DNA of 64,000 nucleotides from a virus, in the IMG/VR virus record IMGVR_UViG_3300043571_000443, positions 10,187 to 74,186 of that record; one strand, 5' to 3'. The position numbers and the translations under genes are program-made. Position 1 is the first letter of the stretch; each line of letters begins with the position of its first letter. The notes below the pieces were generated by a model, which was given only the letters and a program-made list of their open reading frames with translations, searched no databases and had not been told where the DNA came from. Positions 3,133 through 52,251 of this stretch are shown here, piece by piece.

Positions 3133-3321
3133 ATGGCAACCTATGTTTTTCAGTGGGAAAAAGTTTATTCCCGGGGGATGGTAGAAGGCAGCTCCACTAT
3201 CCAGATCACCAGCGGAGACATCCGCATGGGTATCACTGCGGCTCAATTGCAGATCGCTCAGATCCATGCAGTGTCTCCGAACCAAGTCCACATCCGCGAC
3301 ATCCAGCGGATCCATGTTTAA
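3133..3321 (+). CDS. Hypothetical protein
   Basis: GAGGTG RBS; in the early operon. Confidence 0.5.
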   Translation: MATYVFQWEKVYSRGMVEGSSTIQITSGDIRMGITAAQLQIAQIHAVSPNQVHIRDIQRIHV

Positions 3322-3530
3322 CACCCTGGGGGGAGACTAACCAGGCCACTTACAGAGGAAGACTATGAACACCATCCAACCCGCCGATCTGCCCGTGCCC
3401 GCCAGCCAAGGCATTGCCAGCCCAGTCGATGCAGCCCTGTTTGCGGTGACTGGTGCCGTTGTGATTGCCATTGCCGCAGCGGAAAACCGGGAGAAAGGCA
3501 AGAAAAAGTAAGTCTTTTGCTGCCACCCAA

Positions 3531-3723: not shown

Positions 3724-4347
3724 ATGGCAACCAAGAAACCCACACCAAAGCTACGATCCAAGCACGCCCCCAAGCCAGCTCCTGGTGCTAGGCGGGGTAA
3801 CCGGCAGGTGGTAAAGACTTCCGGCCAGCCTGCTACGCCAGCCTGCAAGGAGCGGGCCTTTGAGCTGTACTGCGAGCTGGGGCCACAATGGGCCGAAATA
3901 TCTAGGCGACTGAAGGGCGAAGGCTTTGACCGCTGTGGCAATACGACGATCAGCGGCTGGGCCAAGGCAGGCGACTGGCACGCCAGGAAGCTAGCTATGA
4001 CTGAAGCGCCAGGCGAGGCGGCAAAGGTGCCCCACAAGACCAAGGCAGCACCGCCCCCACCGCCAGCGACAGACCTGGGCAGCTACCGCACCAAGAAAAC
4101 CAACCTGGAGCATGTCAGGACGGCCATTGAGCAGGTGGTGCAGTCCATCTGTGATGCACGGGCCACCAGCGACCTGCGGGCCATTGGTAGCCTAGCAACG
4201 GCGTTGGTAAAGCTGATTGAACTTGAGGGGAAATTAAGCCCCGCCACGGCAGCCGAACTAGCGGCTAGGGCCGTAGAGCTGGGTATGGATCCAGAACAAT
4301 TTGTGGCGGCATTGGCAGAGCAATGGCGGATCGCCAAAGCTGGGTAA
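3724..4347 (+). CDS. Putative terminase small subunit (HTH)
   Basis: RAFELY...AEISRRL...TTISGWAKAGDW HTH pattern plus helical C-terminus; preceded by the late-motif variant GGGCATCCTG at 3709. Confidence 0.5.
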   Translation: MATKKPTPKLRSKHAPKPAPGARRGNRQVVKTSGQPATPACKERAFELYCELGPQWAEISRRLKGEGFDRCGNTTISGWAKAGDWHARKLAMTEAPGEAAKVPHKTKAAPPPPPATDLGSYRTKKTNLEHVRTAIEQVVQSICDARATSDLRAIGSLATALVKLIELEGKLSPATAAELAARAVELGMDPEQFVAALAEQWRIAKAG

Positions 4348-4350
4348 GCG

Positions 4351-4440
4351 CTCCCACGGGGTGGGGTTGCTCAGGGCAAAGAATAACTCCCACGATGGTG
4401 GGGTGATCTAGCGACCGGAGCGACTCCCACCGAAGTGGGG
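4351..4440 (-). repeat. Three short-period (36-37 bp) hairpin units adjoining the CRISPR-like array
   Basis: CTCCCAC-N3-4-GTGGGG at 4351, 4387 and 4424. Confidence 0.7.
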
Positions 4441-4457
4441 CTGGGCTGCTGGGTTTG

Positions 4458-4832
4458 GAAAAACCCCCACCGAAGTGGAGAGGCGTTTGCGAACAGGCCG
4501 GGGAGGGGCCGGGGGCCGGGGCATGGTGGGGAGAAACCCCCACCGAAGTGGGGAGGTGGTTGCGAGTTGTCAAGGCTGACTTTGAAGCTGGCGTGGCGGT
4601 CGAGAAACCCCCACCGCAGTGGGGAGGTGCTTGCGAGTGTGCTTAGCAGAGCCCTTGATGCCAGCCTAGGCGACGAGAAACCCCCACCGAAGTGGGGTGT
4701 GCTTTGCGAGAACCCGCTGATCGAGGGCTTGACGCTTCGAGACTGGGAGAAACCCCCACCGAAGCGGGGAGGTCTTTGCGAGCAGTTAGGACAAATTGAC
4801 TCGAAGACGGAAAAACCCCCACCGGAGTGGGA
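4458..4832 (-). CRISPR. CRISPR-like array: five 36-nt repeats plus one partial repeat; spacers of 37, 35, 37, 36 and 27 nt
   Basis: Repeats GAGAAACCCCCACCGAAGTGGGGAGGTGnTTGCGAG (+ strand) start at 4458, 4531, 4602, 4675 and 4747, with a partial copy at 4810. Periods of 73, 71, 73 and 72 are not all multiples of 3. Orientation is inferred from the hairpin position. Confidence 0.75.
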
Positions 4833-4931
4833 TCCACCACTGTCACCACAAATTGTCAATGTCCTGCCTACCACTATAGCACACATCCACCAACCTGGGC
4901 ACCCTATAAAAAATTCTCTGAGGGATCCACC

Positions 4932-5084
4932 ATGAGCGAGGACATCAAGCGCCAAGTTCAAGCCATTGCACTGGAGATTGCCCGCCGCGAGGTCTTTGAA
5001 CACGAGCTCCGCTTCACTCTGTCCGGTGCCCTGCTGGGCGCTGTCGCGGTGCTGTCCTGGCTGGTAGCCACGGGGCGGTTCTAG
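4932..5084 (+). CDS. Small single-TM protein
   Basis: C-terminal hydrophobic helix; preceded by GGGCACCCTA at 4897. Confidence 0.5.
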   Translation: MSEDIKRQVQAIALEIARREVFEHELRFTLSGALLGAVAVLSWLVATGRF

Positions 5085-7453: not shown

Positions 7454-10400
7454 CTATAGCACCAATGCGGTAAGATCGCTGAGCTGGCTATCCAGATTGG
7501 CGCTAGCCAGCCCTACAGCTTGCCGGATCTCAGGACTGGTCAGACCTGTTGTTGCGCCAGTACCAAACACATCAGCGTTTAGGTTGATCGCATAGCTACT
7601 GGCGGCAATCCCGGTACTGCTGCCGGGGAACGTAATACTCCCGCCTGCAATGCTGAGGGGTGTCGTGCTGTTGGTATTTTCAACCTCTACCCGCCCCGCC
7701 TGGTAACTGGTGAACGACAGCGCCTCTAGGGTGTCAAAGCTAGCCAGCCGAATGCCTGCTTCTGTGCTGCGCACCCAGCACCACCAAAGAAAAATATTCT
7801 GAATCAACTCAACGCCGTCAGTATCATTGGAATTGATCTGAAGAGTGCCCACACCCTCTAGGGCAATGGCAAACTGAGATAGGCCAGAGCCCGTATTAGC
7901 CGGGGTTAGTACGCCATATTTATTGCTTTGGATCTGGGTGCTGGCAACAATGGCTTCGTGGATAGGCTCTAAGACGGTTGGGCCGATAGCTGCACCCACG
8001 GTAATACCGCCTGTGATACTCCACACTAGCAGGCTGTCTCGGGTATCTAGGAAGCTGCCAGAGGTCGCTGTTCCGCCAGACTCCGCCCAGTAGGTGGCCT
8101 TAAGCCGTACCAGGGCACCATTGGGCAGGCTTAAGTTTTGGGCAAGGCCGCTGCCGCCAGACACCACGACATTGAACAGTTCAGTCTCAGCGGCTAGAGT
8201 AAAGTCACCACTGCCCTGGCTGGTAAAGTCTACCGGGGTGCTGGGAATATTGGCGATGCTAGCGAAAAGTTTACCGTCGCTCCAGTAATAGAAGCCACCA
8301 TCCTTAAGGACATTACTGGTGGTCGTGGGCAAGGTTGCGCCGCTATTGAGGCTAAAGCGTACCTGGGTCCAAGGGGCAGCGGTGGCAAAGGCCGCAGGAC
8401 GCCCCTGGCTATCATTGCCCAGGGTGATCGCATCGGTGGTGGTATTGATAGCGGTGCTGGCTACGGTGAAGCTTTGCACCCTGGCCGCATAGGCTCTGGA
8501 TCCATCGGCAAAATTAGGTGCAGTGAATCGGATCTGGGAAACAATGATGATCTTGGTAGGGTCGTAGATTAGCCCAGGGTCGCTGTAGGGAATGGTGAGG
8601 GTGAACGGTCCAACATTGTTAGCCGCCACCACATTCGCCCCCGTCTGGAGGATCAGATTGCTGCCAATGGTGGTGTTCTGGCTGATCGCCAGGGTAGCTC
8701 CGGAAGAGACGGTAAAATTATCGTTATAGGTAGCTTTACTGCTAAGCGTCAGAGTGGTGCCAGCGGCCATGGTAAAGCGATAGGTGCCGGTAATACCTGC
8801 CGTGGCCCCAGACAAGGTAAATCCTTCGTTAAATGTGCCCTCGGCGTCGTCGGTAGCTGTGTAGGCGTAGGGGTAAAATTCACCATTGGCATAGCCGGTG
8901 CTGCCGTCGCTATTGCGCAAGCTGATCAAGCTAGCGCCAATCACCAAAATAGAGAGTGCCTGGAATGCGGTGATCGCAGTAAATAGAGTCAGCGCACCAT
9001 TGGCGGAGGTTTTGGTGATGGCCGGGGCAGTGGTATAGCTTTGGGTCAGCAGGTCAATGACCGTATTGAAGCGGTTGAGTTGATTTAGCCTAGCGATCCG
9101 GCTGTTATTGCCAGAGATGAAACTGTTGGCCGCATCGGTGCTGTTGTAGCTCAGCGCTAGGGGTGCGGTATAGGAGGGAATCTGGAAGCTGGATAGGTAC
9201 TCCGGCAACGTATATTGCCTGCTAGTGGGGGCGACCTGAGTGCCCTTCACGTTGACAGTCGCCGTGCCGTCAAAGGCGTCTAGGTTCAGCTCATAAGCAT
9301 TAACGCCAGCGGTGGTCACAAAAGCGATCACGGTGCGGTTAGCCACGGTGTTATGGTAGAGCGCACCTAAAAGTGAGTCGGTAGCAGTAGTATTGTGCAG
9401 CCAATAAAACAATGCTGCGCTGGTGGGCACCGCATAGCCGCTGGAGTGCGCAATGGTTTGGCCGTTGATAGTAATGGTGCCGGTGCCATCAAAAATGTTG
9501 TCAGCAAAGCGGTAGAGCAGGTTAATGGTGTCCCCCGCTACCAGCAGGACTAAATCAGAACCCGCCTTTGTAAAACTTAGATGACGGGGCGTAGAAGCAC
9601 TTAGCCCATTGGTGGTGAAGGTGGCCTTTACTGCTGGAGCGCTTGATACTGTTGCAGCATCAAAGGCGTAGAGAAATAGCTGATTAGTGGTGCTGGTGGC
9701 GATCAAATAGCTAGTGCCAGCTTTGTAATAAAAATCTAGGTCTCTAGCCGTAACATTGACTGAAAATACAGGGGTGGCGATGTTGTAATAGCCAATAGTA
9801 GTTTCGGCGTTGGGCGCAATGCTTGTCCCATTGACGGTCACCGAGCTGGTGCCATTGAAATTGGCAAGTATTAAATTACGATAAAACGTAGCGGTACTGG
9901 TATTGCGAATCGAGGCAAAGCCATTAGCAAGGTCCGTTGATAGGCGGGCAGCGCTAGGAAAGGCTACACTGGCTAACCGCAATCGGGCACTAACAAATTT
10001 GTTGCCAGCCCCCCAGAACTGTAGCGCATCACCAACGGCGACAGCGTTGGTCAGCCCTGGCGCAAAGGTAACCCTAGCTCGGGTGCCTGCATCAACTAGG
10101 TTCGTCCGAGGATTAACCACCGATACATTGTTGCTGGCGAAATTCACCACATAGATCCGATCACTGGTCGGCGCATAGGCAATGGCGAAAGGCGAACTGC
10201 CAACGGTGATAGTGGCTACGACTGCATTACTGACAGGATTAACCACCGATACATTGCCTTCATTCGCCACATAGATCCGATCACTAGTTGGCGCATAGCC
10301 AACGGCGATAGGCCCAGTGCCAACGGTGATAGTGGCTACGACCGCATTACTGACAGGATTGATCACCGATACATTGTTGGCGGTAGAATTCGCTACATAG

Positions 10401-11500
10401 ATCCGATCACTAGTTGGCGCATAGCCAACGGCGCGAGGCCCAGTGCCAACGGTGATAGTGGCTACGACTGCATTAGTGACAGGATCAACCACCGATACAT
10501 TGTTAGCGCTGTTATTCGCCACATAGATCCGATCACTAGTTGGCGCATAGCCAACGGCCCGAGGCGTAGTGCCAACGGTGATAGTGGCTACGACCGCATT
10601 AGTGACAGGATTAATTACCGACACATTCTGGCCGCTTTGATTCGCCACATAGATCCGATCACTAGTTGGCGCATAGGCAACGGCGAAAGGCCCAGTGCCA
10701 ACGGTGATAGTGGCTACGACCGCATTGGTATCAGGATTAACTACCGATACATTGTTGGTGGTAAGATTCGCCACATAGATCCGATCACTAGTTGGCGCAT
10801 AGCCAACGGCGCGAGGCCCAGTGCCAACGGTGATAGTGGCTACGACCGCATTACTGACAGGATTGATCACCGATACATTGTTAGCGCTGTTATTCGCCAC
10901 ATAGATCCGATCACTAGTTGGCGCATAGCTAACGGCGAAAGGCTGAGTGCCAACGGCGATGGTGCCGGACAGTGCAATAATGCTAGCCGCTGACAGGGTA
11001 TGAGTCGTTGCACCACCAGCCACCGTGAAGCTATCGCCTACCGTTGGCGCAGTCTGAAAGGTGCCATTGCCGTTGTTGAGGTCCAGCGTAGTGCTACCCG
11101 CCAATAGGTTAGCGGCAGTCGTCCCGGCATCTACCAAAATGACTGCACAGCCACCCACGACCGTTGATGGGTCAAAGGCATAGCACCAAATATTGCCCCG
11201 ATCTCCAGCGGTTAGCAAATAGCCTACGCCGCCTGAAAAGAAAAATTGTAGGTCAGAGCTAGTCGTGTCATTGGTTTGCCTAAATTGACCTTGGCGATTT
11301 GCTTCAGTAAAAGTGCCGCCATTGCGAAAGTCGCCCCGCCAAAAAGAAACTAGGCTGCCAAGTCCTGCAAACACTAGGCTATTGTTCGGCGCTGCATCGT
11401 TAAACCAATACACTAAGCTTTGATTGGCAAGGATAGGATCAGCCGCATAGGTGGCATTCGCAGGGGTAACTTCAGCCGTCAGGGCGGTATTGACGCTCAT
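7454..11500 (-). CDS. Large tail fibre / receptor-binding protein with YVTN-type beta-propeller repeats
   Basis: 1348 aa; seven ~42-aa repeats of ATITVGTGPxAVxYAPTSDRIYVAN...NVSVxNP. Confidence 0.8.
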   Translation of the reverse strand: MSVNTALTAEVTPANATYAADPILANQSLVYWFNDAAPNNSLVFAGLGSLVSFWRGDFRNGGTFTEANRQGQFRQTNDTTSSDLQFFFSGGVGYLLTAGDRGNIWCYAFDPSTVVGGCAVILVDAGTTAANLLAGSTTLDLNNGNGTFQTAPTVGDSFTVAGGATTHTLSAASIIALSGTIAVGTQPFAVSYAPTSDRIYVANNSANNVSVINPVSNAVVATITVGTGPRAVGYAPTSDRIYVANLTTNNVSVVNPDTNAVVATITVGTGPFAVAYAPTSDRIYVANQSGQNVSVINPVTNAVVATITVGTTPRAVGYAPTSDRIYVANNSANNVSVVDPVTNAVVATITVGTGPRAVGYAPTSDRIYVANSTANNVSVINPVSNAVVATITVGTGPIAVGYAPTSDRIYVANEGNVSVVNPVSNAVVATITVGSSPFAIAYAPTSDRIYVVNFASNNVSVVNPRTNLVDAGTRARVTFAPGLTNAVAVGDALQFWGAGNKFVSARLRLASVAFPSAARLSTDLANGFASIRNTSTATFYRNLILANFNGTSSVTVNGTSIAPNAETTIGYYNIATPVFSVNVTARDLDFYYKAGTSYLIATSTTNQLFLYAFDAATVSSAPAVKATFTTNGLSASTPRHLSFTKAGSDLVLLVAGDTINLLYRFADNIFDGTGTITINGQTIAHSSGYAVPTSAALFYWLHNTTATDSLLGALYHNTVANRTVIAFVTTAGVNAYELNLDAFDGTATVNVKGTQVAPTSRQYTLPEYLSSFQIPSYTAPLALSYNSTDAANSFISGNNSRIARLNQLNRFNTVIDLLTQSYTTAPAITKTSANGALTLFTAITAFQALSILVIGASLISLRNSDGSTGYANGEFYPYAYTATDDAEGTFNEGFTLSGATAGITGTYRFTMAAGTTLTLSSKATYNDNFTVSSGATLAISQNTTIGSNLILQTGANVVAANNVGPFTLTIPYSDPGLIYDPTKIIIVSQIRFTAPNFADGSRAYAARVQSFTVASTAINTTTDAITLGNDSQGRPAAFATAAPWTQVRFSLNSGATLPTTTSNVLKDGGFYYWSDGKLFASIANIPSTPVDFTSQGSGDFTLAAETELFNVVVSGGSGLAQNLSLPNGALVRLKATYWAESGGTATSGSFLDTRDSLLVWSITGGITVGAAIGPTVLEPIHEAIVASTQIQSNKYGVLTPANTGSGLSQFAIALEGVGTLQINSNDTDGVELIQNIFLWWCWVRSTEAGIRLASFDTLEALSFTSYQAGRVEVENTNSTTPLSIAGGSITFPGSSTGIAASSYAINLNADVFGTGATTGLTSPEIRQAVGLASANLDSQLSDLTALVL
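10110..10960 (-). repeat. Near-identical ~126-bp coding tandem repeats
   Basis: Repeated ACATAGATCCGATCACTAGTTGGCGCATAG and CCAACGGTGATAGTGGCTACGAC blocks. Confidence 0.9.
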
Positions 11501-13870: not shown

Positions 13871-14434
13871 CTACAGCTTCCACACCCACAGCAGCAGTGC
13901 CGCTAGCCCGCCACTGGTGACCAGCATGATCCATTGCACGAATAGCGGTTGCTTGGTCCACCAGGCCCAGATGGACTCCACCCATTCTGCCCACCATGGA
14001 CGGGCACCCCGGGGTGCATCGCCGGTTACCTCAGTGTGGTGCTGCTCCTGCTTGACTGGCTCAGCCATTAGCTTTGTCCCGCTAGTGTCATCATCATCAT
14101 GGGAAACCCGGTAGACCAGCCCGCCTAGCCATAGTATGTCCTTCTCCATCAGGTCCACCCATAGGCCAGGCTTCAGCGCTCGACTGTTAATATAGGTGCC
14201 ATTGGTGCTAAAGCCATCCTTCAGTTCCCACAGCCACACCCGATCCCCCGCCTGGGTAACATCGGTGGCCCGTAGCTCTGCGTGTCGCTTCGAGAGTCGT
14301 GAGTCTATAATGTGAATATCGCATTGTGGATCCCGGCCAATACTCCACAGTCCAGCGGGGGGCGGCCAGGATCCATCCAGCACCCAGTAGGGGTGTTGGC
14401 CATCGACTGGGTGTAGGCAAAGTTTGCGGGTCAT
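13871..14434 (-). CDS. FHA-domain protein with C-terminal TM helix
   Basis: IGR, SKRHA and STNGT FHA motifs; hydrophobic C-terminus; late-motif variant at 14440-14449. Confidence 0.85.
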   Translation of the reverse strand: MTRKLCLHPVDGQHPYWVLDGSWPPPAGLWSIGRDPQCDIHIIDSRLSKRHAELRATDVTQAGDRVWLWELKDGFSTNGTYINSRALKPGLWVDLMEKDILWLGGLVYRVSHDDDDTSGTKLMAEPVKQEQHHTEVTGDAPRGARPWWAEWVESIWAWWTKQPLFVQWIMLVTSGGLAALLLWVWKL

Positions 14435-14519
14435 GGCTATAGAATGCCCAGCCCACCCATCCTGGGGAATGCTGAGAATGTTGTCAGTCCCTACCCGGCC
14501 TAGGCCGGGTTTCCTGCCA

Positions 14520-15830
14520 ATGGCCACCCTCGGCGCACTAGAGCTCAGAGCAGAATGGAAGAAATGGTTAGTCGCCAGCTATGCTGCGGTGCCCACCGAC
14601 TCGGTGGACCTCGACAAACTAGCCAGGAACCTGCTGCCCTGGGCCCAGCCATTGCTAGAGCCACGCCGGTACAAATGCCTATGGGGTGGCCGCGGATCGG
14701 GTAAGTCCACCGCTGCGGCTGATGCGCTGCTGATCGAAGGGGCCCGGCGTAAGTGTCGGGTGCTATGCGCCAGGGAATTTCAGGTGTCCATCAAGGACTC
14801 GGTTCACCATCTGCTAAAGCAACGCATTGAAGACCTGGGGCTGGAGTCCGTGTACTCTGTCCAGGAGGCCCAGATCCTTGGCCCACGTGGCACCCAGTTT
14901 ATTTTCAAAGGGCTGCGCCATAACATTAGCTCCATCAAGTCGATCAGCGGCATCACCCATTGCTGGGTAGAAGAGGCCCAAACGATCAGCCAAAAAAGCT
15001 GGAATGATCTGGTGCCATCTATCCGGGCCCCAGGTTCTGAGATCTGGGTAACCTTTAATCCATATCAAAAGACGGATCCTATCTATCAAACCTTCCTGAT
15101 CAACCCTGGCCAGCTGGGCGGTGGTAGCTACATCCAGCGGGTGAACTGGGATCTTAACCCGTACTTTCCGCCAGAGCTAGACGCTGAACGCCAAGCGATG
15201 CAGGCCACCGATCCTGATCTTTACCAACACATCTGGGAAGGAGAATGCCTGGAAAATGCAGACTCCCAGGTGCTATATGGCAAGTGGATTGTGGATGAGT
15301 TCAAGCCTGCCGCTGACTGGCAGGGGCCGTACTTTGGTGCTGACTGGGGCTTTGCTGCAGACCCGACCGCTGCGGTTAAGTGCTGGATCCATGGCAACCG
15401 GCTTTATGTGGAGCAAGAAAGCTATGCCCACCGGCTAGAGCTAGACGAAACAGCTAAGCGCTGGATTCGAGATATTCCAGGCATCGACGGCCATGTAGTG
15501 CGGGTGGACAATTCCAGGCCAGAAAGCATCAGCCATGTTAGCCGCCGCGGCATTCCCAGGCTGACAGCGGTGCGCAAGTGGCCGGGCAGTGTCGAAGACG
15601 GCATTGCCTACCTGCGCAACTTTGAGAAGGTTGTCATCCACCCTCGCTGCTCCAATATGGCAACTGAGGCCCGGCTGTACTCTTACAAAGTAGACAAGCT
15701 AAGCGGCGACATCCTGCCTCAGGTAATTGACGCCAACAACCACTTGATGGATGCGCTGCGCTATGCGCTGGGGCCCATGATCCAGCAACGGCAGACTGGC
15801 ATGGCTCAGTCAGTGGCTGTATGGGGCTAG
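14520..15830 (+). CDS. terL: Terminase large subunit (PBSX type)
   Basis: Walker A GGRGSGKS, CWVEEAQ, TFNP, nuclease GADWG and NHLMDALRY. Confidence 0.95.
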   Translation: MATLGALELRAEWKKWLVASYAAVPTDSVDLDKLARNLLPWAQPLLEPRRYKCLWGGRGSGKSTAAADALLIEGARRKCRVLCAREFQVSIKDSVHHLLKQRIEDLGLESVYSVQEAQILGPRGTQFIFKGLRHNISSIKSISGITHCWVEEAQTISQKSWNDLVPSIRAPGSEIWVTFNPYQKTDPIYQTFLINPGQLGGGSYIQRVNWDLNPYFPPELDAERQAMQATDPDLYQHIWEGECLENADSQVLYGKWIVDEFKPAADWQGPYFGADWGFAADPTAAVKCWIHGNRLYVEQESYAHRLELDETAKRWIRDIPGIDGHVVRVDNSRPESISHVSRRGIPRLTAVRKWPGSVEDGIAYLRNFEKVVIHPRCSNMATEARLYSYKVDKLSGDILPQVIDANNHLMDALRYALGPMIQQRQTGMAQSVAVWG

Positions 15831-15844
15831 GGCACACTATCAGC

Positions 15845-17341
15845 ATGAATGATCCATCCCTCCCTAACTACCACGACCCTGCGTTAAAAAAGCTGCAGCC
15901 AGCGCTGAAGCTATGCTTTGACGTATGGAATGGGCTCTATGGGCTCAAGGCTGACTACCTGCCCCAGGCTAGCCGGGAACCCCGGGCCGCCTACGATGAT
16001 CGGGTGAACCGGGCCGTATTCAACAACAAATACCGGGCCCAGGTGGAAAGCATCAGCGGCTTGCTGACAGCCTTCGACGTTGAGGGCTACCCGGCCAGCT
16101 TCGAGCAAGCTGAAGCGGATGGCCTATACCTGGACGGTAATGGATCCGACTGGACTAGCTTTTTACGCCAAGCGGATGAACTAGCCCTGCGGGATGGGCT
16201 AGTGTATGTGCTGACCAATAATGTGCAGCTGAGCCCGGAGGATGCCGCCACCCGCACCGCCGCCGACCGTCGCACCTACCCGCAATGGACGCTGGTAGAT
16301 CGGCGTAATGTGATCAACTGGCGGGGGGAGTTGCGTAATGGATCCATGGTGCTCACCCAGGTCACCCTTGTCATGCACCGGGATCAGACCGTTGGCAGCT
16401 ATGGATCCATCAGTGAGCCCTATTACCATACTTTTCGGCTGCTTCCGGGTGATGGCGGTGTCAGCCTGACGGTGGCCCGCATCAGTGACCGTGGGGCGGT
16501 GGATATTGTGGACGAACGCACCGCACCAGTCCAACGGATCCCGCTCCAGGCCTACCCGGATGTGACCAACCCATTCCCCCATGACGGCGACCTGCAGCTA
16601 CCGTACCTACTGAAAGCAGCCGAGCTAAACATTAAGCTATTCCGCCAAGAGTCTAGCCTAGATACAATCCAGTATCGGGTAAATGCGCCCACGGTCTATC
16701 GGGTAAGCAGCATGGACTTTACCCAGCGGCCACCGATCATTTTTGGACCCAACCATGTGATCGAGCTGATGCGGGACAGCAATACCACTGCTGCTGGCGA
16801 GGACTCGGTAGGGGTCATCGAGATTACTGGCCAGGGCATTGCTGAACTACGGGAAAGCTGCAACGAAACCCGCCGCGCCATCGACGAAGAAGGGGTAGGG
16901 TTCATTGGTGGTGGCAGTGTCCAGCGATCTGCAACAGAGGCCTACCTAGCCGCCAGCCGATCCAGTGCCAGCCTGAATGGCTATGCTAGGGCCAAAAGCC
17001 AGGCTGTCAAAGCGCTGGTGGCCGACTGGTGCCTATTTACTGGCGAAGACCCCAGTGACGTTGAAGTTGAGATGGATCAGTCTGTTCTGGAGATGCCGCT
17101 CGATGCCCAGGAGATGGGCGCATTGCTAGGCCTATGGCAAGCAGGCGCTATCGACCATCAAACCTTGCTGGAGCTATTGCGGATGGGTCGCCAGCTGCCG
17201 CCTGGTGTCGATATTGAAGAGATCATGGAGCGGGTAGCGGTGGAACGCGATGCCGCCATGCCGGGGGCGTCGGAGGTGATTAACGGGATCCTGATGCCAG
17301 CCAGCCAGCCCGGGCAACCTGAAGCTGTACCTGAAGACTGA
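15845..17341 (+). CDS. Portal protein
   Basis: Directly after terL; ~500 aa; YLPQ...E...AYDDRVNRAVF motif of DUF4055-type portals. Confidence 0.8.
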   Translation: MNDPSLPNYHDPALKKLQPALKLCFDVWNGLYGLKADYLPQASREPRAAYDDRVNRAVFNNKYRAQVESISGLLTAFDVEGYPASFEQAEADGLYLDGNGSDWTSFLRQADELALRDGLVYVLTNNVQLSPEDAATRTAADRRTYPQWTLVDRRNVINWRGELRNGSMVLTQVTLVMHRDQTVGSYGSISEPYYHTFRLLPGDGGVSLTVARISDRGAVDIVDERTAPVQRIPLQAYPDVTNPFPHDGDLQLPYLLKAAELNIKLFRQESSLDTIQYRVNAPTVYRVSSMDFTQRPPIIFGPNHVIELMRDSNTTAAGEDSVGVIEITGQGIAELRESCNETRRAIDEEGVGFIGGGSVQRSATEAYLAASRSSASLNGYARAKSQAVKALVADWCLFTGEDPSDVEVEMDQSVLEMPLDAQEMGALLGLWQAGAIDHQTLLELLRMGRQLPPGVDIEEIMERVAVERDAAMPGASEVINGILMPASQPGQPEAVPED

Positions 17342-22790: not shown

Positions 22791-23885
22791 TCAAGCTGAT
22801 CGCTCGATTACAGCAGATGTCCGCCAATAGTAACTTACCTGAGGATCCGCGCCTAGCGTCGTCAACGTCAAGGTGTTTGACTCTGTGTCTATAATTCCGA
22901 ACCGGTTGCCGCCATCCTTAAGATATGGAATGCAGTAGATCTTTGTACCTACAACAGCAGATGTCCGCCAATAGTAACTTACCTGAGGATCCGCGCCTAG
23001 CGTCGTCAACGTCAAGGTGTTTGACTCTGTGTCTATAATTCCGAACCGGTTGCCGCCATCCTTAAGATATGGAATGCAGTAGATCTTTGTACCTACAACA
23101 GCGGACGTTAACCAGCGATACTGTATTTCCGGATCAGCTCCTAAGTCTACTAACTCTAGCGTGTCTGACTCGGTATCTAGAATACCAAACCGATTACCTG
23201 CTATTGGGCCAAGCGAAGGATCGCCTACACTGCTAAAAGGAATGGAATAAATTTTCATTCCTACGATAGCAGATGTATTCCATGAATATATTATATTAGG
23301 ATCAAGGCCTAATCTTGTTAACATCAATGTGTTTGACTGCACATTTATAATACCAAAATGATTACTTCCAATTAGCGCTACAGATGGAATGCAATAAATC
23401 TTTGTGCCTACACTAATACATGAAGACCAATTGTAAGTTACCTGAATATTCGCAGTTAGCGTGGTTAAGGTTAACAGATCTAATGCCGTGTCTATAATCC
23501 CAAACTGGGTTGTTCCACTTGTGCCAAAAGACGGAATGCAATAAACGCTTGTGCCTACAACAACAGATGCAAACCAGTTATAACTAACCTGAGAATTAAC
23601 ATTTAGTGTAGTCAATGTTAATGAGTTTGATCCTGCATTTATAATCCCGAATTGATTATTTCCGCTTGTGGCGACAGATGGGACACAATATATCTTTGAC
23701 CCTACGACAGCAGATGTAGCCCACTGATAATCAATTTGCGTATCAACTCCTAATGTTTTTAGGCCCAAGACATTTGATTGTGCATTGATAAGACCAAACT
23801 GATTCCCTCCAGAGCCTTCAAAAGGAATGCAATAAATATCGAATTTCTCCCCCCCAAACCATACCCAGCCTAGCTGCCTACCCAT
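22791..23885 (-). CDS. Beta-propeller (kelch-like) repeat protein, probable tail or receptor-binding component
   Basis: About seven repeats of VGTKIYCIP...FGII; visibly AT-richer than its neighbours. Confidence 0.7.
   Translation of the reverse strand: MGRQLGWVWFGGEKFDIYCIPFEGSGGNQFGLINAQSNVLGLKTLGVDTQIDYQWATSAVVGSKIYCVPSVATSGNNQFGIINAGSNSLTLTTLNVNSQVSYNWFASVVVGTSVYCIPSFGTSGTTQFGIIDTALDLLTLTTLTANIQVTYNWSSCISVGTKIYCIPSVALIGSNHFGIINVQSNTLMLTRLGLDPNIIYSWNTSAIVGMKIYSIPFSSVGDPSLGPIAGNRFGILDTESDTLELVDLGADPEIQYRWLTSAVVGTKIYCIPYLKDGGNRFGIIDTESNTLTLTTLGADPQVSYYWRTSAVVGTKIYCIPYLKDGGNRFGIIDTESNTLTLTTLGADPQVSYYWRTSAVIERSA
22811..23098. repeat. Exact 144-bp tandem duplication
   Basis: 22811-22954 equals 22955-23098 (one 48-aa blade). 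Confidence 0.85.
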
Positions 23886-42818: not shown

Positions 42819-43022
42819 ATGCCCAAGTTCATTTCCATCCAAGACGGCGCTTACCTGCTCAACCTGGCCCATATCGTCAGCATCGAGGTAAATAAAGGAT
42901 CCCTGGAAGTTACCTGCAATGATGGCCAAGGGGCCTACACCATAGATGACCCTGACGAGATGGGGACACTGATGGACGCGATCCAAATCGTGGATTCAAG
43001 CGAAGAAGGGATGCAAATGTAA
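42819..43022 (+). CDS. Small acidic protein in promoter cassette 2
   Basis: GAGGA RBS; terminator at 43051-43073. Confidence 0.65.
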   Translation: MPKFISIQDGAYLLNLAHIVSIEVNKGSLEVTCNDGQGAYTIDDPDEMGTLMDAIQIVDSSEEGMQM

Positions 43023-43058
43023 CCCACCCTCCCCACCGCTTCCCCGCAGACCCCCGGC

Positions 43059-43733
43059 CTAGCTGGGGGTTTTGCTTTGGGCCACATAGCTGAGCAGGTC
43101 CATTAACCGGCTGCCCCGCACTGGCGCGATCTGGTCCTCCAGTGGCTGATACTGGCTGATCGCCCGCATCAGCCTGTCGCTGTGGTACAAACCGCTATCG
43201 ATCTCCGTCTTGCTAAACCCCAGCGCCATTAGCCCCTCATAGGCAGCTAGAAGGCCCGTGAAGCGTTCCCGGCCTATCCACAGGGTATCTAGCTCGAACT
43301 GCACCGGGAAATGGTCTCTGCTATGGCCATCCTGGGCCCAGGGCAGCACATGTTTCTGGCCAGACTCAGCAATGACAATCGTAAACGGTGGCTCCGGTGG
43401 CTCCAGTAGCCAGCCACGGATCTGAGCTCGGGTGGGCAAGTCCGAGACTACCGGAAAGATGTCTTTGCCGATGGCCTTGGCCTCACCGATCGCAGGCGAC
43501 AGCAGCACATCGCCCTGGTACAACCGGCTCAGGGACCGGCCCCATAGCTTACTCCACTTGTCCTTGCCCTGATTCCAGTACCACAGCAGCTTCTCATGGC
43601 CGTCGATGGCACCATAGCACCGCCCGCATAGCTGGTCGGAGTCTGGGCAACGGGCCATGCTGTGGCCGGTGAAAGTGTCCTTGAGCGCCAAGGGGAAGCT
43701 GGCGGGCTTGCCGCATAGGTAGCACTCAGCCAT
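43059..43733 (-). CDS. csf1: Type IV CRISPR large subunit Csf1 (Cas8-like)
   Basis: N-terminal Zn finger CYLCG...TFT...CPDSDQLCGRC and LLEPPEPPF...SGQKHVL motifs; ATG at 43733 overlaps the cysH stop. Confidence 0.75.
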   Translation of the reverse strand: MAECYLCGKPASFPLALKDTFTGHSMARCPDSDQLCGRCYGAIDGHEKLLWYWNQGKDKWSKLWGRSLSRLYQGDVLLSPAIGEAKAIGKDIFPVVSDLPTRAQIRGWLLEPPEPPFTIVIAESGQKHVLPWAQDGHSRDHFPVQFELDTLWIGRERFTGLLAAYEGLMALGFSKTEIDSGLYHSDRLMRAISQYQPLEDQIAPVRGSRLMDLLSYVAQSKTPS

Positions 43734-44469
43734 GGTCTGCAACCTCCGGAAAGTGTTTACAAAATTCAGCCCAAAATTCTGGATGGTAGCGCCGCAGGTC
43801 ACTGAGTCGCCCCCAGTTTACGCCAGTAGTCCCGATGGGTGGCCCATTGCGCACCGTCAGCCGGTCCCGGTCGTACATGGCAGGGTAGGGCAGTCGGTGG
43901 GCGTCGATATAGCACCAAATATCCTGGGTGCTCCAAAAGCCGACCGGCGAACATACCCACAGGCCATCCTTACGCTGGTATAGCTCGCCCTTGCCCTTCA
44001 GGTACATAGCGCGGCCCCGAGACTCTTTGCGTAGCCCCCAGGCATAGCCTCGCACGCCATGGGCCTCCTGGTAGTCATCCAGCGGGCCATACATTAGCGC
44101 TGCATTAATGCGCTTGTCCAGGCCGGTCGCCATGGTGCCATCCAAGGGAATGCCATAGTCCTGGTACAGCTTCAGTAGGCTGCGGGGTGGGCATAGCTCG
44201 ATGATGTTCCAGCCCTGGCCCTGCAGGTGGTGCAATAGCTCGATGCAGTCCGGCCATTCTGCCAACGGCCCTTGGTTTACCCAGGCAAAAGGGCAGTCCG
44301 GCCATACCTGGCGGATTAAGTGAGCCATTACCAAGCTATCCTTGCCGCCACTGACTGAGCCATAGGCGTAGCGATCTGTGGCCTCCAGCCAGCGGCCAAT
44401 AACAGAAAGCGCCCGGTCAACCTTGCGGGTCAACCAGGGCGCTCGTGAGCCGGTGCCGGTGTTAAGCAA
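43726..44469 (-). CDS. cysH: CysH / PAPS-reductase-like protein of the type IV-B locus
   Basis: PP-loop SVSGGKDS, WGLRKESRGR, PVGFWS...IWCYI...LPYPAMYD. Confidence 0.85.
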   Translation of the reverse strand: MLNTGTGSRAPWLTRKVDRALSVIGRWLEATDRYAYGSVSGGKDSLVMAHLIRQVWPDCPFAWVNQGPLAEWPDCIELLHHLQGQGWNIIELCPPRSLLKLYQDYGIPLDGTMATGLDKRINAALMYGPLDDYQEAHGVRGYAWGLRKESRGRAMYLKGKGELYQRKDGLWVCSPVGFWSTQDIWCYIDAHRLPYPAMYDRDRLTVRNGPPIGTTGVNWGRLSDLRRYHPEFWAEFCKHFPEVADHG

Positions 44470-44770
44470 GCTGCATCCGCTCGCTCATTGCATCCGCAAA
44501 CCATTCGCGGATCTTGTCTTCGGCATTGTCATAAAAGCGAGTGTTGGAGTCGTCATCCCACTCTTCGTCGTTGAGGTGGGGGACGGTAAGAATGAGTCCG
44601 GGGCTATCGTACAGGTTCCCAACAGAACCCTTGTCCAGGGATCGGTAGGTGCCATCCTCAAACAGCTCAACAACGTAAGCACCGCCGCCCCAGGATGCCT
44701 TTGTGGAAGAATCAACGGTGGCCTCGAAGTCGATGGCCATGAAGTTATCGAAAGCCTTTTGAATAGTCAT
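44462..44770 (-). CDS. Small, very acidic protein in promoter cassette 3, inside the cas operon
   Basis: D/E-rich (NDEEWDDDS); own promoter. Confidence 0.7.
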   Translation of the reverse strand: MTIQKAFDNFMAIDFEATVDSSTKASWGGGAYVVELFEDGTYRSLDKGSVGNLYDSPGLILTVPHLNDEEWDDDSNTRFYDNAEDKIREWFADAMSERMQLA

Positions 44771-44777
44771 CAGTCAG

Positions 44778-44837
44778 TCCTCATAAGTGGTTTGTTCCAT
44801 GCCTTCAATATACCCCCTGCATATCGAACTGTCAACA
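44778..44837 (-). promoter_or_regulatory. Repeated promoter cassette, copy 3
   Basis: TTGACA-17-TATATT; the -35 overlaps the cas6 stop codon; CCACTTATGAGGA leader. Confidence 0.8.
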
Positions 44838-45440
44838 CTTTTCGACAAAATAGCCACAGCCTAGGCGCTGTCTACCTCCTAGCCCTTGCCGCTGGAGAGT
44901 CAGCGACGCATCCGGCGATAGGTCGGCAAAGCTTACCCCGTAGCCCACCACGGCAGCATCCTTGATCCGCAGGGTTTTGCGCTCCCCCAGTACCGGCATA
45001 GACTGTACCCCCAACCGTTCCAGCGCCTTGCCTAGGGCTATCCCGAACTCAAAAGGTGACACCTGGTCCTGGTACTGGGCTTTGATGGTCACCAGCCTTG
45101 CCTCCAGGCTAGGACATGGCTGCAGGGATGCACCCGTGAAGGTGCCTAGCTGCACCAGCGCCTTACCCACCCGCAATACTTGCCCGTCCAGGCTACCGAA
45201 TAGCTCCAGGTTGGCCAGCTCAGTCCGCACCCCTAGCCAGCTTTCGCTACCCAGTTGCACCCAGCCCTGGCGGTCCGGGATACCGTTGATCGTCTTCAGC
45301 GACCAGGCCAGCTCCTTTAGCCCCGGCAGGCGTTCCACCAGAGCGCTATAAAGCCGGTAGCCATGGTCGGCGGGTATCCTATCGCCCTGCACCGGCCAAG
45401 CTAGCTGTATCCAGGTAGGCGGTGTGGACGGGCATGGCAC
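44832..45440 (-). CDS. cas6: CRISPR-associated endoribonuclease Cas6 (Myxan / I-B-like)
   Basis: LAWPVQGDRIPADHGYRLYSAL N-terminal motif; C-terminal Gly-rich loop GLGGRQRLGCGYF; probable GTG start at 45440. Confidence 0.85.
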   Translation of the reverse strand: MPCPSTPPTWIQLAWPVQGDRIPADHGYRLYSALVERLPGLKELAWSLKTINGIPDRQGWVQLGSESWLGVRTELANLELFGSLDGQVLRVGKALVQLGTFTGASLQPCPSLEARLVTIKAQYQDQVSPFEFGIALGKALERLGVQSMPVLGERKTLRIKDAAVVGYGVSFADLSPDASLTLQRQGLGGRQRLGCGYFVEKC

Positions 45441-46107
45441 AGCGGGCTTTGTTGGCTGATAGCCAGGCGGGGGGTCGCCAGCCCCAGTCGCGGATGGCAA
45501 TATCAATCGGTCGGTCCCGGGGCAGGTGGACGGCGGGGATGGGTCGCATAAGTTCACCGTTTGGCCCCCATAGGTGCCAGTCTTGGTCATGGTCCTCTAC
45601 CTCCCAGTTGGTAACTTGCCCGTAGCCATGGGCGCGTTTCTTGCCTAGCCCAGTACAGCCTTGCAATAATGCCGCGATGCCTTCCCGGTCGCCCTGGCAG
45701 TACCAGGTGATTGTCGGTGCCAGCCGCACAAACAAGGGCAGGTCGTAGGCTTTCTCCGCCCCCTGACTGGTATCCCACTTTGCCTTGCGCTTCCCCCAGG
45801 CCGGTGGTGGGCTATCGATCCCAGGTGCCCAGCGCTTCCTAAATTTGCTAACCGACTCATTGCGGTAGGTGTAGCACGGACTAGAGGTTTGCCAGTACCA
45901 ATCCTCGCCCAGCCAACCCTTAGCCAGTGGCATGTGTTCATCCACTACCGGGCGGCTAGCTTCTACGTCCTGGGCGCTAGGGTTGGGGGCCGCCATGCCC
46001 CGGGCATCGAGGATCAACCACTCCAGCAGGCTAGCCAGATCAGGACTCCAGTCATCAAAGACGGCAATGCCCGACGATAGCCGGGCGGTGACTCGCAGGT
46101 TAGCCAT
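45379..46107 (-). CDS. csf3: Type IV Csf3 (Cas5 group)
   Basis: LRVTARL RAMP start, WYCQGD...LGKKRAHGYGQV Gly loop, MRPIP, WRPPAW. Confidence 0.8.
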   Translation of the reverse strand: MANLRVTARLSSGIAVFDDWSPDLASLLEWLILDARGMAAPNPSAQDVEASRPVVDEHMPLAKGWLGEDWYWQTSSPCYTYRNESVSKFRKRWAPGIDSPPPAWGKRKAKWDTSQGAEKAYDLPLFVRLAPTITWYCQGDREGIAALLQGCTGLGKKRAHGYGQVTNWEVEDHDQDWHLWGPNGELMRPIPAVHLPRDRPIDIAIRDWGWRPPAWLSANKARCAMPVHTAYLDTASLAGAGR

Positions 46108-47263
46108 TGAGCAAACCCTTCAGCTCGCTGGACTCCTGGGCCTGGGCTAGAAATTCCTGGTAGACGCTCAGGTAGTCCTGATAGGCATGGTGGGCCTCCT
46201 GAGCGGCGCTGGATAGCGTCTGGCTGCCAGTAGCTAGCGATAGGAAATGGCCGCGCTCCTGGCCACGCTGATACCAAAATTCTAGCGACACCAACCCATT
46301 GCCGCGGTTAGCCTTGCCGCCGATATAGGGACTTTCGGCAAAGCGCAGTAGGGTATCGACTACCCAGCCAGTCTCGATGGCGGTGGTGTGCAGATCCCAG
46401 CGGCTATAGAGCCTGGAACCCGCCATGATCAGCCGGTCGCTGGCGATCATCTGGTCAGACTTTTTGGCCTTATCCTCACCCTTAGCCTTTGACTTGGCCT
46501 CACCCAATAGGCTCATCTGGCCTTCCTCCGTACCGCCTGGGAGGAACTTTTGCAACGCTGGATCGTGGGTACTATCGCGGCGGGTGGTTTGGTCTACCGT
46601 CAGGTACTGGGTCCAGTTGCGCAGCATCTTGCGCAGGTAGGGCAGGTGGTCTGCCTTGGCCTGGCGGTAGACTTCAACCTGCTCAGCCGTAGGTGGCTCA
46701 AACGGATTAGCTGTTAGCCTGTCTTTGTACTCCAGTAGTTCCTGCAGCCTGGGCAGTACATCTGGCGGCAATAGGCCGGGAAATTCCCGGTAGATCAGCT
46801 CCGCCGACTCGTAGCACAGCAGATACGCACTACCCACCGCCAGTCGGCCATGGACCATCTGGGCATTCTTCACCCCAAATACCCCGGCAGGCTTGGCCGT
46901 ACCCAGCACCGACAGCCAGGGCATCAACTGCCGGATGCGGGTGTCCAGGTCCATATCGTTGGCGGTGCTGCCATCAATGCGGCCGCCAGCAAATAGGGTG
47001 TGGTGAACATCTGGCGATACCTGCAGGGCCAGCGCATCCAGCACACTAGCCATGCCACGGCGGCGTAGGATACCATTCCGCAGCGCATTGCCAGAATAGA
47101 CAAAGCAGGAGACCGGGTTCCCCTCCAGGTCCAGCAGCTTGGCCGTCTTGAGGTTACTGACATTGCCTGCTACCTCGCCAATGTGGGACAGCGGGCTTTG
47201 CAGGGTCACCTGGCAGTGCAAGGTGATCCGCTGCCGATCATGGATATCGTAAGCTTCAAACAT
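46100..47263 (-). CDS. csf2: Type IV Csf2 (Cas7 group backbone)
   Basis: TLQSPLSH, YSGNALRNGILRR, LFAGG, TTRRD, IGGKANRGNG. Confidence 0.85.
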   Translation of the reverse strand: MFEAYDIHDRQRITLHCQVTLQSPLSHIGEVAGNVSNLKTAKLLDLEGNPVSCFVYSGNALRNGILRRRGMASVLDALALQVSPDVHHTLFAGGRIDGSTANDMDLDTRIRQLMPWLSVLGTAKPAGVFGVKNAQMVHGRLAVGSAYLLCYESAELIYREFPGLLPPDVLPRLQELLEYKDRLTANPFEPPTAEQVEVYRQAKADHLPYLRKMLRNWTQYLTVDQTTRRDSTHDPALQKFLPGGTEEGQMSLLGEAKSKAKGEDKAKKSDQMIASDRLIMAGSRLYSRWDLHTTAIETGWVVDTLLRFAESPYIGGKANRGNGLVSLEFWYQRGQERGHFLSLATGSQTLSSAAQEAHHAYQDYLSVYQEFLAQAQESSELKGLLNG

Positions 47264-47771
47264 CGGTGGTTACCTCTACGTCGATAGCATCGTCTGGCGC
47301 ATCCTGGCCTAGCGCCCGGTCTTCCTCAAAGCGCAGGCGGCACAGCACCTGAATGATAGCCGCCCGGGTCCGGCATAGCTCAAGCACATCCCACTCGGTA
47401 AAGCCGTCCTTGGCGATCTGCTGCAGCAAGTCCCGCCAGCCGACAAAGACTAGCGCCTCATCCTGGGTCAGCTCCTGGATCTCGCTCAGGTCAGCGTTTA
47501 CCCGTAGGATGCGCTGCTCTGGCTGCACGATGCCGGTCAGTACCGCTGGCCGTAGGTGGCTGATCAAGGCATTGACCAGGCGTTGTAGGTAGTCCTCCAG
47601 CGTGGTGGATACCTCAGCGCTATTCTGGATAGTGGACTCCAGAAAAGTCCAGGTCTTGGTGCCCATGGCTGGACTTTTGGCCCGGTCGCGGCACTTGAAC
47701 ACCCAATAGCTAAGGGCTGCCGCTAGCCCATAGGCGCTATCGGAGGCATTGGAAAAACCGAATTGACTCAT
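47256..47771 (-). CDS. Type IV-B small subunit (Cas11-like)
   Basis: All-helical ~170 aa protein coupled upstream of csf2; TATAAT on the minus strand at 47791-47796. Confidence 0.55.
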   Translation of the reverse strand: MSQFGFSNASDSAYGLAAALSYWVFKCRDRAKSPAMGTKTWTFLESTIQNSAEVSTTLEDYLQRLVNALISHLRPAVLTGIVQPEQRILRVNADLSEIQELTQDEALVFVGWRDLLQQIAKDGFTEWDVLELCRTRAAIIQVLCRLRFEEDRALGQDAPDDAIDVEVTTDV

Positions 47772-47885
47772 AATGCTTGACAAAACTGCCATTATAGTAT
47801 CACAACCCTGGCCAGCCACGACAAAGCCCGCCAGGTGGCCAGCGGGCTGGGGTGGGGGAGTGGGGTGGAGGGGGAGTGTCCTCTT

Positions 47886-48197
47886 TTACTCAAATACGAC
47901 TCGCCGCATCTCCTCTTGCACACCAAGCATTAGTTCTAAAGCTTGGTCAAATGTTCGATTTACTCTGCCCATGCGCTGACGGACATCTGGCTCAACTTCA
48001 GACCCCAAGGCCCTTTTTGCCAATAAATCGAAGATAGCTTCTTCCAAAAGCGCTTGAACGCTAGTATTCTCCTGAGAAGCTATTTCCCGCAGCTTGACGG
48101 AGACCTCTGGATCAAAGCGACCAGCTATCATCTTTTTGTTTCGTCTAGCTTTGTTGGCATCAACATCAAGCATGAAATACAGCTCCATCAGAAACAA
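47886..48197 (-). CDS. Ribbon-helix-helix regulator
   Basis: IAGRFDPEVSVKLREIASQENTSVQALLEEAI. Confidence 0.65.
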   Translation of the reverse strand: MFLMELYFMLDVDANKARRNKKMIAGRFDPEVSVKLREIASQENTSVQALLEEAIFDLLAKRALGSEVEPDVRQRMGRVNRTFDQALELMLGVQEEMRRVVFE

Positions 48198-51047: not shown

Positions 51048-51049
51048 GG

Positions 51050-52156: not shown

Positions 52157-52251
52157 CTATAAAACTCCAGTCTGCGTACTGTCAACAAAGTCATGCTAAC
52201 ACAACTAAGCTTAAAGTTGGCGGCTATTATTTGGATTTTATAACTTTTGGG

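Follow-up and report, generated by a model that had tools for sequence, protein, structure and literature searches.

A leader-driven CRISPR array of a 74-kb temperate phage, probably used with the phage's own reduced Cas set against rival phages

The stretch of viral DNA analysed here (hereafter the window) comprises 64,000 nucleotides (nt), bases 10187–74186 of the 74,186-bp IMG/VR record IMGVR_UViG_3300043571_000443, and carries on its minus strand an array of hairpin-forming repeats (array C, window 4347–4831) headed by a conserved leader. [quoted passage not shown] Its most likely role is in conflict of phage against phage, served by the phage's own reduced Cas6e-Cas7-Cas5 set. Direct support comes from the anatomy of the array, its leader, an RNA-type pattern of stem conservation, the turnover of spacers between related phages, protospacer matches and the co-occurrence of arrays with type I-E-like genes. 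Two further arrays (A and B) lie on the same genome outside the window, and their positions are given in genome coordinates (L001).

CRISPR arrays consist of at least three direct repeats of 23–55 nt, regularly separated by unique spacers of similar length. In array C there are five full 36-nt direct repeats (within window 4458–4832), with start-to-start steps of 73, 71, 73, and 72 nt and four long spacers of 37, 35, 37, and 36 nt between them, exactly where an earlier note on this DNA had placed them; a truncated repeat and a 26-nt spacer complete the series. Tandem Repeats Finder called a 73-nt period at the site. The mean pairwise identity of the repeats is 87% (range 81–94%), and the mutual similarity of the spacers is at the level of shuffled sequence (all p > 0.09). 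Read on the minus strand, each repeat is predicted to fold into a 13-nt 5' extension, a G+C-rich stem of 6–7 bp capped by a tetraloop of the UUCG type, and a tail of 7 nt; the hairpin with a tail of 7–8 nt, the geometry of a Cas6 substrate, had been recognized from the sequence beforehand and is upheld by this predicted fold.

In the order set by the leader (4832–4895, a block of about 60 nt with invariant columns from an extended −10 element, TG-n-TATAGT at 4873–4883, to the first hairpin), the array begins with the truncated repeat R0 (4809–4831), which has the hairpin and tail and lacks the 13-nt 5' extension, and the 26-nt spacer C0 (4783–4808), for which no match was found. There follow R1 (36 nt, 4747–4782), in which an A-to-G change in the stem gives a G.U pair, spacer C1 (36 nt, 4711–4746), R2 (4675–4710), spacer C2 (37 nt, 4638–4674), R3 (4602–4637), spacer C3 (4567–4601), R4 (4531–4566), the G+C-rich, low-complexity spacer C4 (37 nt, 4494–4530) and the last full repeat, R5 (4458–4493), which has four changes relative to the consensus. 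The remainder, 4347–4457, is a trailer of three decayed hairpin-plus-tail units (hairpins at 4426–4439, 4389–4402, and 4353–4365) joined by linkers of 16–17 nt. The array, which had been thought to start 110 bp beyond the stop codon of the neighboring open reading frame (ORF), in fact lies flush with that stop (TAA, 4345–4347), and its final tail overlaps it. The ORF itself (3724–4347, plus strand, 207 amino acids [aa]) is convergent with array C. No Pfam or PHROG family was found for it, which leaves its previous designation as terS without support, and the large terminase lies at 14424–15830; what it does resemble, distantly, is the gene targeted by C3 (see below). A repeat protein as the source of the array was considered and rejected, as the periods do not keep to multiples of three and no family was matched by the ORFs that overlap the array. 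No transfer RNA was found.

Four relatives bearing the same repeat were identified in IMG/VR (sister phages G001–G004, the phage studied here being G000), and they are 80–95% identical to it over most of the shared DNA. Their syntenic arrays are bounded on one side by the conserved leader and on the other by the homologue of ORF 3724–4347, whose 3' end is conserved. Between these two borders the content is replaced: the site holds five long units in G000, six in G001, one in G002, and about six in G003, and no long spacer is common to the studied phage and its sisters, leader and trailer being retained throughout and the minimal units of the trailer being partly common to G001, G002, and G003. 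Spacer content polymorphic among G000–G003 beside a conserved trailer end is the behavior of a CRISPR array, and the identical spacers in related phages that the earlier note named as the sign of a fixed structural repeat were not encountered at array C. The twin of array C, array B (L001 6066–6540, plus strand), has five long repeats followed by minimal units; two of its spacers are each common to one relative, and its trailer is common to all relatives. Over all the phages the spacers of the long repeats measure 33–38 nt and the repeats 36–37 nt. An origin of the spacers by tandem duplication and drift was also rejected, given that spacer pairs are dissimilar and that another phage carries the counterpart of one spacer in reverse complement.

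The leader is equally consistent. The ~60-nt block with its extended −10 element is common to arrays A, B, and C and to the arrays of the sister phages, and a truncated half repeat heads all of them, array A (L001 213–622, minus strand) being made only of minimal hairpin-plus-tail units with linkers of 13–26 nt. Upstream of the −10 element the sequences of the three arrays are unrelated. A conserved leader of this kind is a further general feature of CRISPR arrays, and the promoter within it is predicted from sequence. On the plus strand of the leader a −35/−10-like pair (4853–4882) faces away from array C and toward a 50-aa ORF (4932–5084, plus strand), which has a Shine-Dalgarno-like GAGG and encodes a hydrophobic C-terminus; it may be that the leader is a region of divergent promoters.

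Conservation of the stem was analyzed in 48 oriented long repeats taken from the five phages. The 3' arm of the stem and the two bases that follow it are near-invariant, one column having two exceptions, and variation is limited to the 5' extension and the 5' arm, with pairing kept. Every stem change that is common is a transition and lies in the 5' arm, and at least five different positions have changed. With the repeats oriented so that the tail lies 3' of the hairpin, 14 of the 16 non-Watson-Crick stem pairs are G.U and one is A.C, a count in which not all changes are independent since some repeat copies are inherited. As these changes read as G.U pairs on the minus strand and as A.C mismatches on the other, they fit a hairpin of RNA copied from the minus strand of the window, which is the direction that the leader sets as well. 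The earlier suggestion that the repeats drift for lack of maintenance does not agree with changes that are confined to the 5' side and preserve pairing, nor with spacers that turn over between sister phages. Transcription of array C and its processing into CRISPR RNAs (crRNAs) thus receive indirect support from the G.U-tolerant evolution of the stem and from the predicted hairpin.

A target could be assigned most clearly to spacer C3. In reverse complement it resembles a spacer from an array of G002 (28/35), with all four differences at third codon positions of one frame. When a metagenome collection was scanned with a wobble-degenerate pattern for the peptide of these two spacers, 29 hits were obtained, among which one contig of 3,549 bp (L081) stands out: bases 4567–4600 of C3 are identical to L081 1920–1953 (34/34), and the one remaining base, 4601, beside the repeat tail, mismatches. 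The other 28 hits reach at most 28/35. The best 30-nt window of C3 on L081 matches at 30/30, compared with a maximum of 20/30 for shuffled spacers. Spacers of G004, G003, and G001, which took no part in the search that found L081, also lie on it, at 1987–2024 (33/38), at 1675–1709 (32/35; from the G003 counterpart of array C) and at 3300–3339 (32/40; from array B of G001, with seven of the eight mismatches in one codon phase), respectively, and the G002 spacer covers the C3 site on the opposite strand. L081 therefore holds the protospacer of C3 and those of four sister-phage spacers. It is without the hairpins of this phage family, and its DNA similarity to the studied phage is limited to the spacers and two short motifs. 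The proposal that the array is aimed at competing phages is accordingly strengthened by a 34/34 protospacer in a foreign, phage-like contig. That both strands of L081 are matched argues for targeting of DNA rather than RNA.

The C3, G002, and G004 sites fall within a single L081 gene (1841–2437, 198 aa), the product of which has a weak N-terminal helix-turn-helix (HTH) and is a homologue of the product of window ORF 3724–4347 (30% identity, E 2e-10); a Dam methylase gene adjoins it. About 30 metagenomic variants of this target protein were found, on contigs of up to 15 kb. About ten of them contain exactly the 11-residue peptide of C3, and another subgroup contains exactly the 12-residue peptide of the G004 spacer. 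In a peptide-level comparison of all long spacers with the target protein in 38 variants, significance was reached by C3 and the G004 spacer only; C4 has 24/37 at L081 433–469 and, as a peptide, some weak likeness to a Gly-rich linker of the target family, neither of which is significant. A motif of 31 nt with flanking half-repeats is present both in the studied phage (window 63468–63498) and in L081 (1717–1747), with 29/31 identity and upstream of a gene in each; on L081 it adjoins the G003 target (1675–1709) and lies just upstream of the HTH-type gene. From its sequence it looks like an operator or origin-type element common to the two.

Searches elsewhere gave little. In IMG/VR the degenerate C3 pattern returned only a spacer of a sister phage, and the target protein returned only a sister phage's own homologue. 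In species genomes the pattern gave only chance matches to a 9-residue peptide, and the target-protein profile found nothing. The comparison of arrays C and B with INPHARED by blastn yielded chance matches only (E about 0.6), and 6 kb of flanking sequence gave no match there. Against the studied phage itself and its four relatives, the best matches of the long spacers were at the level of shuffled sequence, the C3–G002 pair excepted; the impression of no self-match, previously gained by eye, was correct, and self-targeting by the long spacers was rejected. In reverse-complement frames of C1 and C2 (window 4638–4746), 6-residue stretches are identical at five of six positions with different Arg and Ser codons, which is marginal (p about 0.03); the two may come from the same site in two variants of one gene.

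The array had been described as an orphan. In the complete genome it is not, as the window had cut off a cas6e-cas7e-cas5e operon (genome 2210–4609) about 10 kb upstream of array C, together with the twin array and the third array with the same leader. The operon as a whole (genome 1566–4609) encodes a nuclease-like protein with a weak SfsA-type match below the Pfam cut-off, Cas6e (genome 2210–2821; PF08798; TIGR01907, 54.3 bits against a cut-off of 45.2), Cas7e (TIGR01869) and a short Cas5e (TIGR01868), the three Cas homologues all scoring above the NCBIfam type I-E cut-offs. The alignment of Cas6e with CasE/Cse3 enzymes of solved structure includes the C-terminal glycine-rich loop. Its relatives, 71–97% identical, are in metagenomes, and the next ones are only 26% identical, making it an isolated lineage; its profile found none in species genomes. 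Cas7e is present in all four array-bearing phages examined. As in type I-E arrays, the repeat has a stem of 6–7 bp, a tetraloop and a conserved 7-nt tail plus one variable base, and with a Cas6e encoded on the same genome it is a predicted substrate of that enzyme. The earlier statement that adaptation genes are lacking holds for the complete genome, in which Cas1 and Cas2 (PF01867, PF09707, PF09827) gave no match at E ≤ 1; no Cas1 was found in G001–G003 either.

Taken together, the findings lead us to propose the following mechanism, in which transcription, cleavage by Cas6e, the composition of the complex, what happens at the target and how spacers are acquired are the steps that we infer. 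A pre-crRNA would be transcribed on the minus strand from the conserved leader promoter and cut by the phage Cas6e at the 3' base of each hairpin. Each guide, of about 72 nt, would then carry a 5' handle of 7–8 nt, a spacer of 33–38 nt, and a 3' part made of the 13-nt linker and the hairpin. Such guides would load the phage Cas7e and the short Cas5e, and the complex would bind the DNA of rival phages from a distantly related group, the identified target being an HTH-type gene homologous to the ORF adjoining the array. A guide of sister phage G003 would bind just upstream of that HTH-type gene, at a place where there are operator-like repeats of the kind also seen near window 63468–63498. As no Cas3 is encoded, the target would probably be silenced, or else cut by a partner nuclease. 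Gain of spacers would have to draw on more than the genes of the phage, either through host Cas1-Cas2 acting in trans or through recombination between phages, and the mosaic sharing of spacers in array B hints at the latter.

Several points weigh against this interpretation. No protospacer adjacent motif (PAM) is common to the five protospacers; the earlier note had suggested that a shared one be sought. Only one of the five spacers of array C has a clear target; for C0, C1, and C2 none was found in INPHARED, in the studied phage or in its sisters, and exact 20-mers of C1 and C2, the two spacers checked against IMG/VR in this way, gave no match. Type I-E arrays have repeats of 28–29 nt and spacers of 32–33 nt, and the repeats and spacers found here (36–37 and 33–38 nt) depart from both; the handle sequence is also unlike that of type I-E, and an Rfam scan gave no match to CRISPR-DR or any other family, either at the gathering threshold or at E ≤ 1. 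Cas8e (Cse1), Cas11 (Cse2), and Cas3 were not detected in the complete genome by hidden Markov models (HMMs; PF09481, PF09485, TIGR01587) at E ≤ 1, so that a Cas6e-Cas7-Cas5 complex would have to open DNA without them; an ORF of 354 aa (genome 674–1738) has no HMM, PDB-sequence or Atlas support as a Cas8e. As the first repeat lacks the 13-nt extension, the long repeats cannot arise by plain copying of the repeat nearest the leader. The studied phage also has a second Cas6, described below, which might share the repeat as a substrate.

The best surviving alternative, which we nevertheless regard as unlikely, is that host proteins are used, the guides hijacking a type I-E Cascade and Cas3 of the host, or the repeats acting as RNA decoys for host Cas6e, Cas7, and Cas5 in the manner of a Racr-like anti-CRISPR. 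Both have documented counterparts, in virus-borne mini-arrays that rely on host effectors (PMC6858448) and in Racr decoys (PMC10651486), and the studied phage is itself without matches to Cas8e, Cas11, Cas3, Cas1, and Cas2. About 50 copies of the hairpin (CCCAC-N3-5-GTGGG) are moreover scattered over the whole genome in 12 clusters, often just past stop codons. The phage has, however, its own Cas6e, Cas7e, and Cas5e. Known mini-arrays copy the repeat of the host, but an exact-pattern scan of 185,579 species genomes with the repeat hairpin and tail found nothing, and the relatives of Cas6e are known from metagenomes only. From a pure decoy one would likewise expect neither near-perfect foreign targets on the two DNA strands nor spacers that turn over rapidly, and nothing points to hijacking of a host Cascade.

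Marginally less probable again is that array C feeds a type IV-B-like complex encoded 38 kb away, with processing by its Cmx6-type Cas6. The earlier note had favored this complex as a user of the guides, and the cas genes that it reported at 43–48 kb are indeed there: the group (43059–47819, minus strand) comprises Csf1-like, CysH-like, Cmx6-type Cas6, Csf3-like, and Csf2-like genes and a 187-aa ORF without a family, the Cmx6-type Cas6 and the Csf-like genes occupying 43059–47263. The Cmx6-type Cas6 is a clear match (window 44832–45590; PF09559, 5e-47; TIGR02807), as is the CysH-like 3'-phosphoadenosine 5'-phosphosulfate reductase, whereas the matches to Csf1, Csf3, and Csf2 are weak and below threshold. 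A Cas6 is unusual for an operon of this type, no other repeat family was seen near it, and a repeat of 36–37 nt is atypical for type I-E, all of which would suit such a user. Yet the genes belong to an island of 9.3 kb (about window 42964–52251, also holding a ribbon-helix-helix antitoxin-like gene and three large ORFs, with a G+C content that drops to 47–48% at 48–52 kb) that is unique to the studied phage. In G001 and G002 both flanks of the island are present with 1.9 and 4.3 kb of other DNA between them, and no match to the Cmx6-type Cas6 or the Csf2-like gene was found in G001–G003, which keep long repeats, leaders, and arrays. Because the sisters without the island keep the arrays and Cas7e, it is the I-E-like operon and not the IV-B-like genes with which the arrays co-occur. 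The stem geometry of the hairpin is, in addition, that expected of a Cas6e substrate, and IV-B systems described to date lack arrays (PMC11656645). The IV-B-like genes are thus probably not the user of array C.

That the repeats are a non-CRISPR structural element (tandem terminators or attenuators, protein-binding palindromes or a decaying relic) is very improbable, for although the palindrome is dispersed, often follows stop codons and scores as terminator-like with its T-rich tail, and although an adaptation module is lacking, such an element would not account for regular 71–73-nt units with unique spacers behind a dedicated conserved leader, for G.U-tolerant stem evolution on one strand only, for the complete replacement of spacers between close relatives, or for spacers of five phages that match one foreign 3.5-kb contig near-perfectly with their mismatches in codon phase.

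We return, then, to a CRISPR locus working with the phage's own Cas6e, Cas7e, and Cas5e. A broader proposition, which we put forward only tentatively and which may well prove too wide, is that a family of ~74-kb temperate phages possesses a self-contained, I-E-derived mini-Cascade without Cas8, Cas11, Cas3, Cas1, or Cas2, fed by leader-driven arrays of fast turnover among near-identical genomes that repeatedly sample one gene family of a rival, be it a hetero-immune phage or a satellite, the family being that of the homologue of the ORF adjoining array C. It would be a compact RNA-guided DNA silencer for superinfection exclusion, with array C as its store of guides and with spacers gained without an integrase of the phage's own.

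The genome of the studied phage is complete (74,186 bp with a terminal repeat of 127 bp) and is that of a tailed temperate phage, with a large terminase and portal, a Mu F-like head protein and an integrase; the terminase and portal region (14424–17341) is 10 kb from ORF 3724–4347. The core of the dispersed hairpin, CCCAC-N4-GTGGG, is present in 23 copies in the window where 3.9 would be expected, and none of 100 shuffles reached 23. One long linker of array A (L001 457–513), kept in G001 and G002, has an 18/19 match to another place in this phage's genome (L001 793–811), some 300 bp off in the interval that separates array A from the cas6e operon, and could be a self-directed regulatory guide. 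Guides of that kind have been described for repeat-like RNA elements (bioRxiv 10.1101/2023.03.03.530964). Other repeated sequences were observed as well. The palindrome TGGATCCA has 24 copies in the genome against 1.05 expected and GGATCC has 86 against 22 expected; the cyanobacterial HIP1 octamer GCGATCGC is absent from the whole genome. Two coding tandem repeats, probably fiber or tail repeat domains to judge from their sequence, lie at 10109–10964 (126-nt units, 6.8 copies, in the 1348-aa ORF 7454–11500) and at 22810–23192 (144-nt units, 2.7 copies, in ORF 22791–23885). There are also non-coding, iteron-like tandem repeats at 56336–56441 (21-nt units, 4.9 copies, with a C-run) and 59661–59705 (10-nt units, 4.5 copies).

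The locus offers a natural and testable case of RNA-guided exclusion of phage by phage in which spacers are tied to a concrete rival element. It supplies a defined pair of guide and target for reconstitution (window 4567–4600 and L081 1920–1953), and with it a route to asking how arrays gain spacers without Cas1-Cas2 and if DNA can be targeted with no more than three Cas proteins. In most cases a virus-borne array is copied from an array of the host and has one or two spacers, whereas the family studied here maintains several multi-spacer arrays built on its own repeat.

Among the closest known systems are the mini-CRISPR arrays of the Saccharolobus portogloboviruses SPV1 and SPV2, which take part in interviral conflicts (PMC6858448; reviewed in PMC11656645). 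In both cases a viral array without an adaptation module targets a related but distinct virus, and the spacers differ among close relatives. The SPV1 and SPV2 arrays have one or two spacers, copy the repeat of the host and rely on host Cas proteins, whereas the studied phage has five to six spacers per array, three leader-driven arrays, a repeat that the scan of 185,579 species genomes did not find, and a Cas6e, Cas7e, and Cas5e of its own. Phages with CRISPR-Cas systems of their own include ICP1, whose type I-F system acts against PLE, and huge phages, whose systems can lack the adaptation or the nuclease module, both Cas1-Cas2 and the nuclease being known to have been lost there (PMC11656645). 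There too, effector genes and arrays are carried on the phage and aimed at competing elements. Such systems are rare in phages below 200 kb (PMC11656645), and the present one differs in a genome of only 74 kb, in effectors reduced to Cas6e, Cas7e, and Cas5e, and in hybrid arrays of long and minimal repeats.

With the type I-E arrays of E. coli and Thermus thermophilus, array C has in common a G+C-rich hairpin of 6–7 bp, a tetraloop and a tail of 7–8 nt as would-be 5' handle. It is set apart by repeats of 36–37 rather than 28–29 nt, by a conserved 13-nt insert 5' of the hairpin and by a different handle, and the system is set apart by having no detected Cas8e, Cas11, Cas3, Cas1, or Cas2, no common PAM and no Rfam CRISPR-DR match. 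A precedent for a three-protein Cascade is type I-Fv of Shewanella putrefaciens CN-32, for which an interference complex of Cas6, Cas7, and Cas5 variants with crRNA is reported (PMC4937334). That system is I-F-derived and chromosomal and gives immunity against phage infection, whereas the one studied here is I-E-derived and has neither Cas3 nor adaptation genes. Plasmid type IV-A3 is similar in being a CRISPR system of a mobile element, without adaptation genes or nuclease, that targets rival elements, and its spacers are supplied in trans by the type I-E adaptation module of the host (bioRxiv 10.1101/2023.06.23.546257; PMC11656645). It is plasmid-borne and uses Csf proteins and DinG; for the studied phage, acquisition in trans would be one of the routes proposed above.

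Virus-borne arrays directed against related viruses (PMC6858448) and phage CRISPR systems from which the adaptation or nuclease module is missing (PMC11656645) are therefore already known. What differs here is a genome of ordinary size, a private repeat of 36–37 nt built on an I-E-type hairpin, a set of Cas proteins made of Cas6e, Cas7e, and Cas5e only, multi-spacer, leader-driven arrays that end in minimal units, and spacers that converge on a homologue of the gene next to the array.

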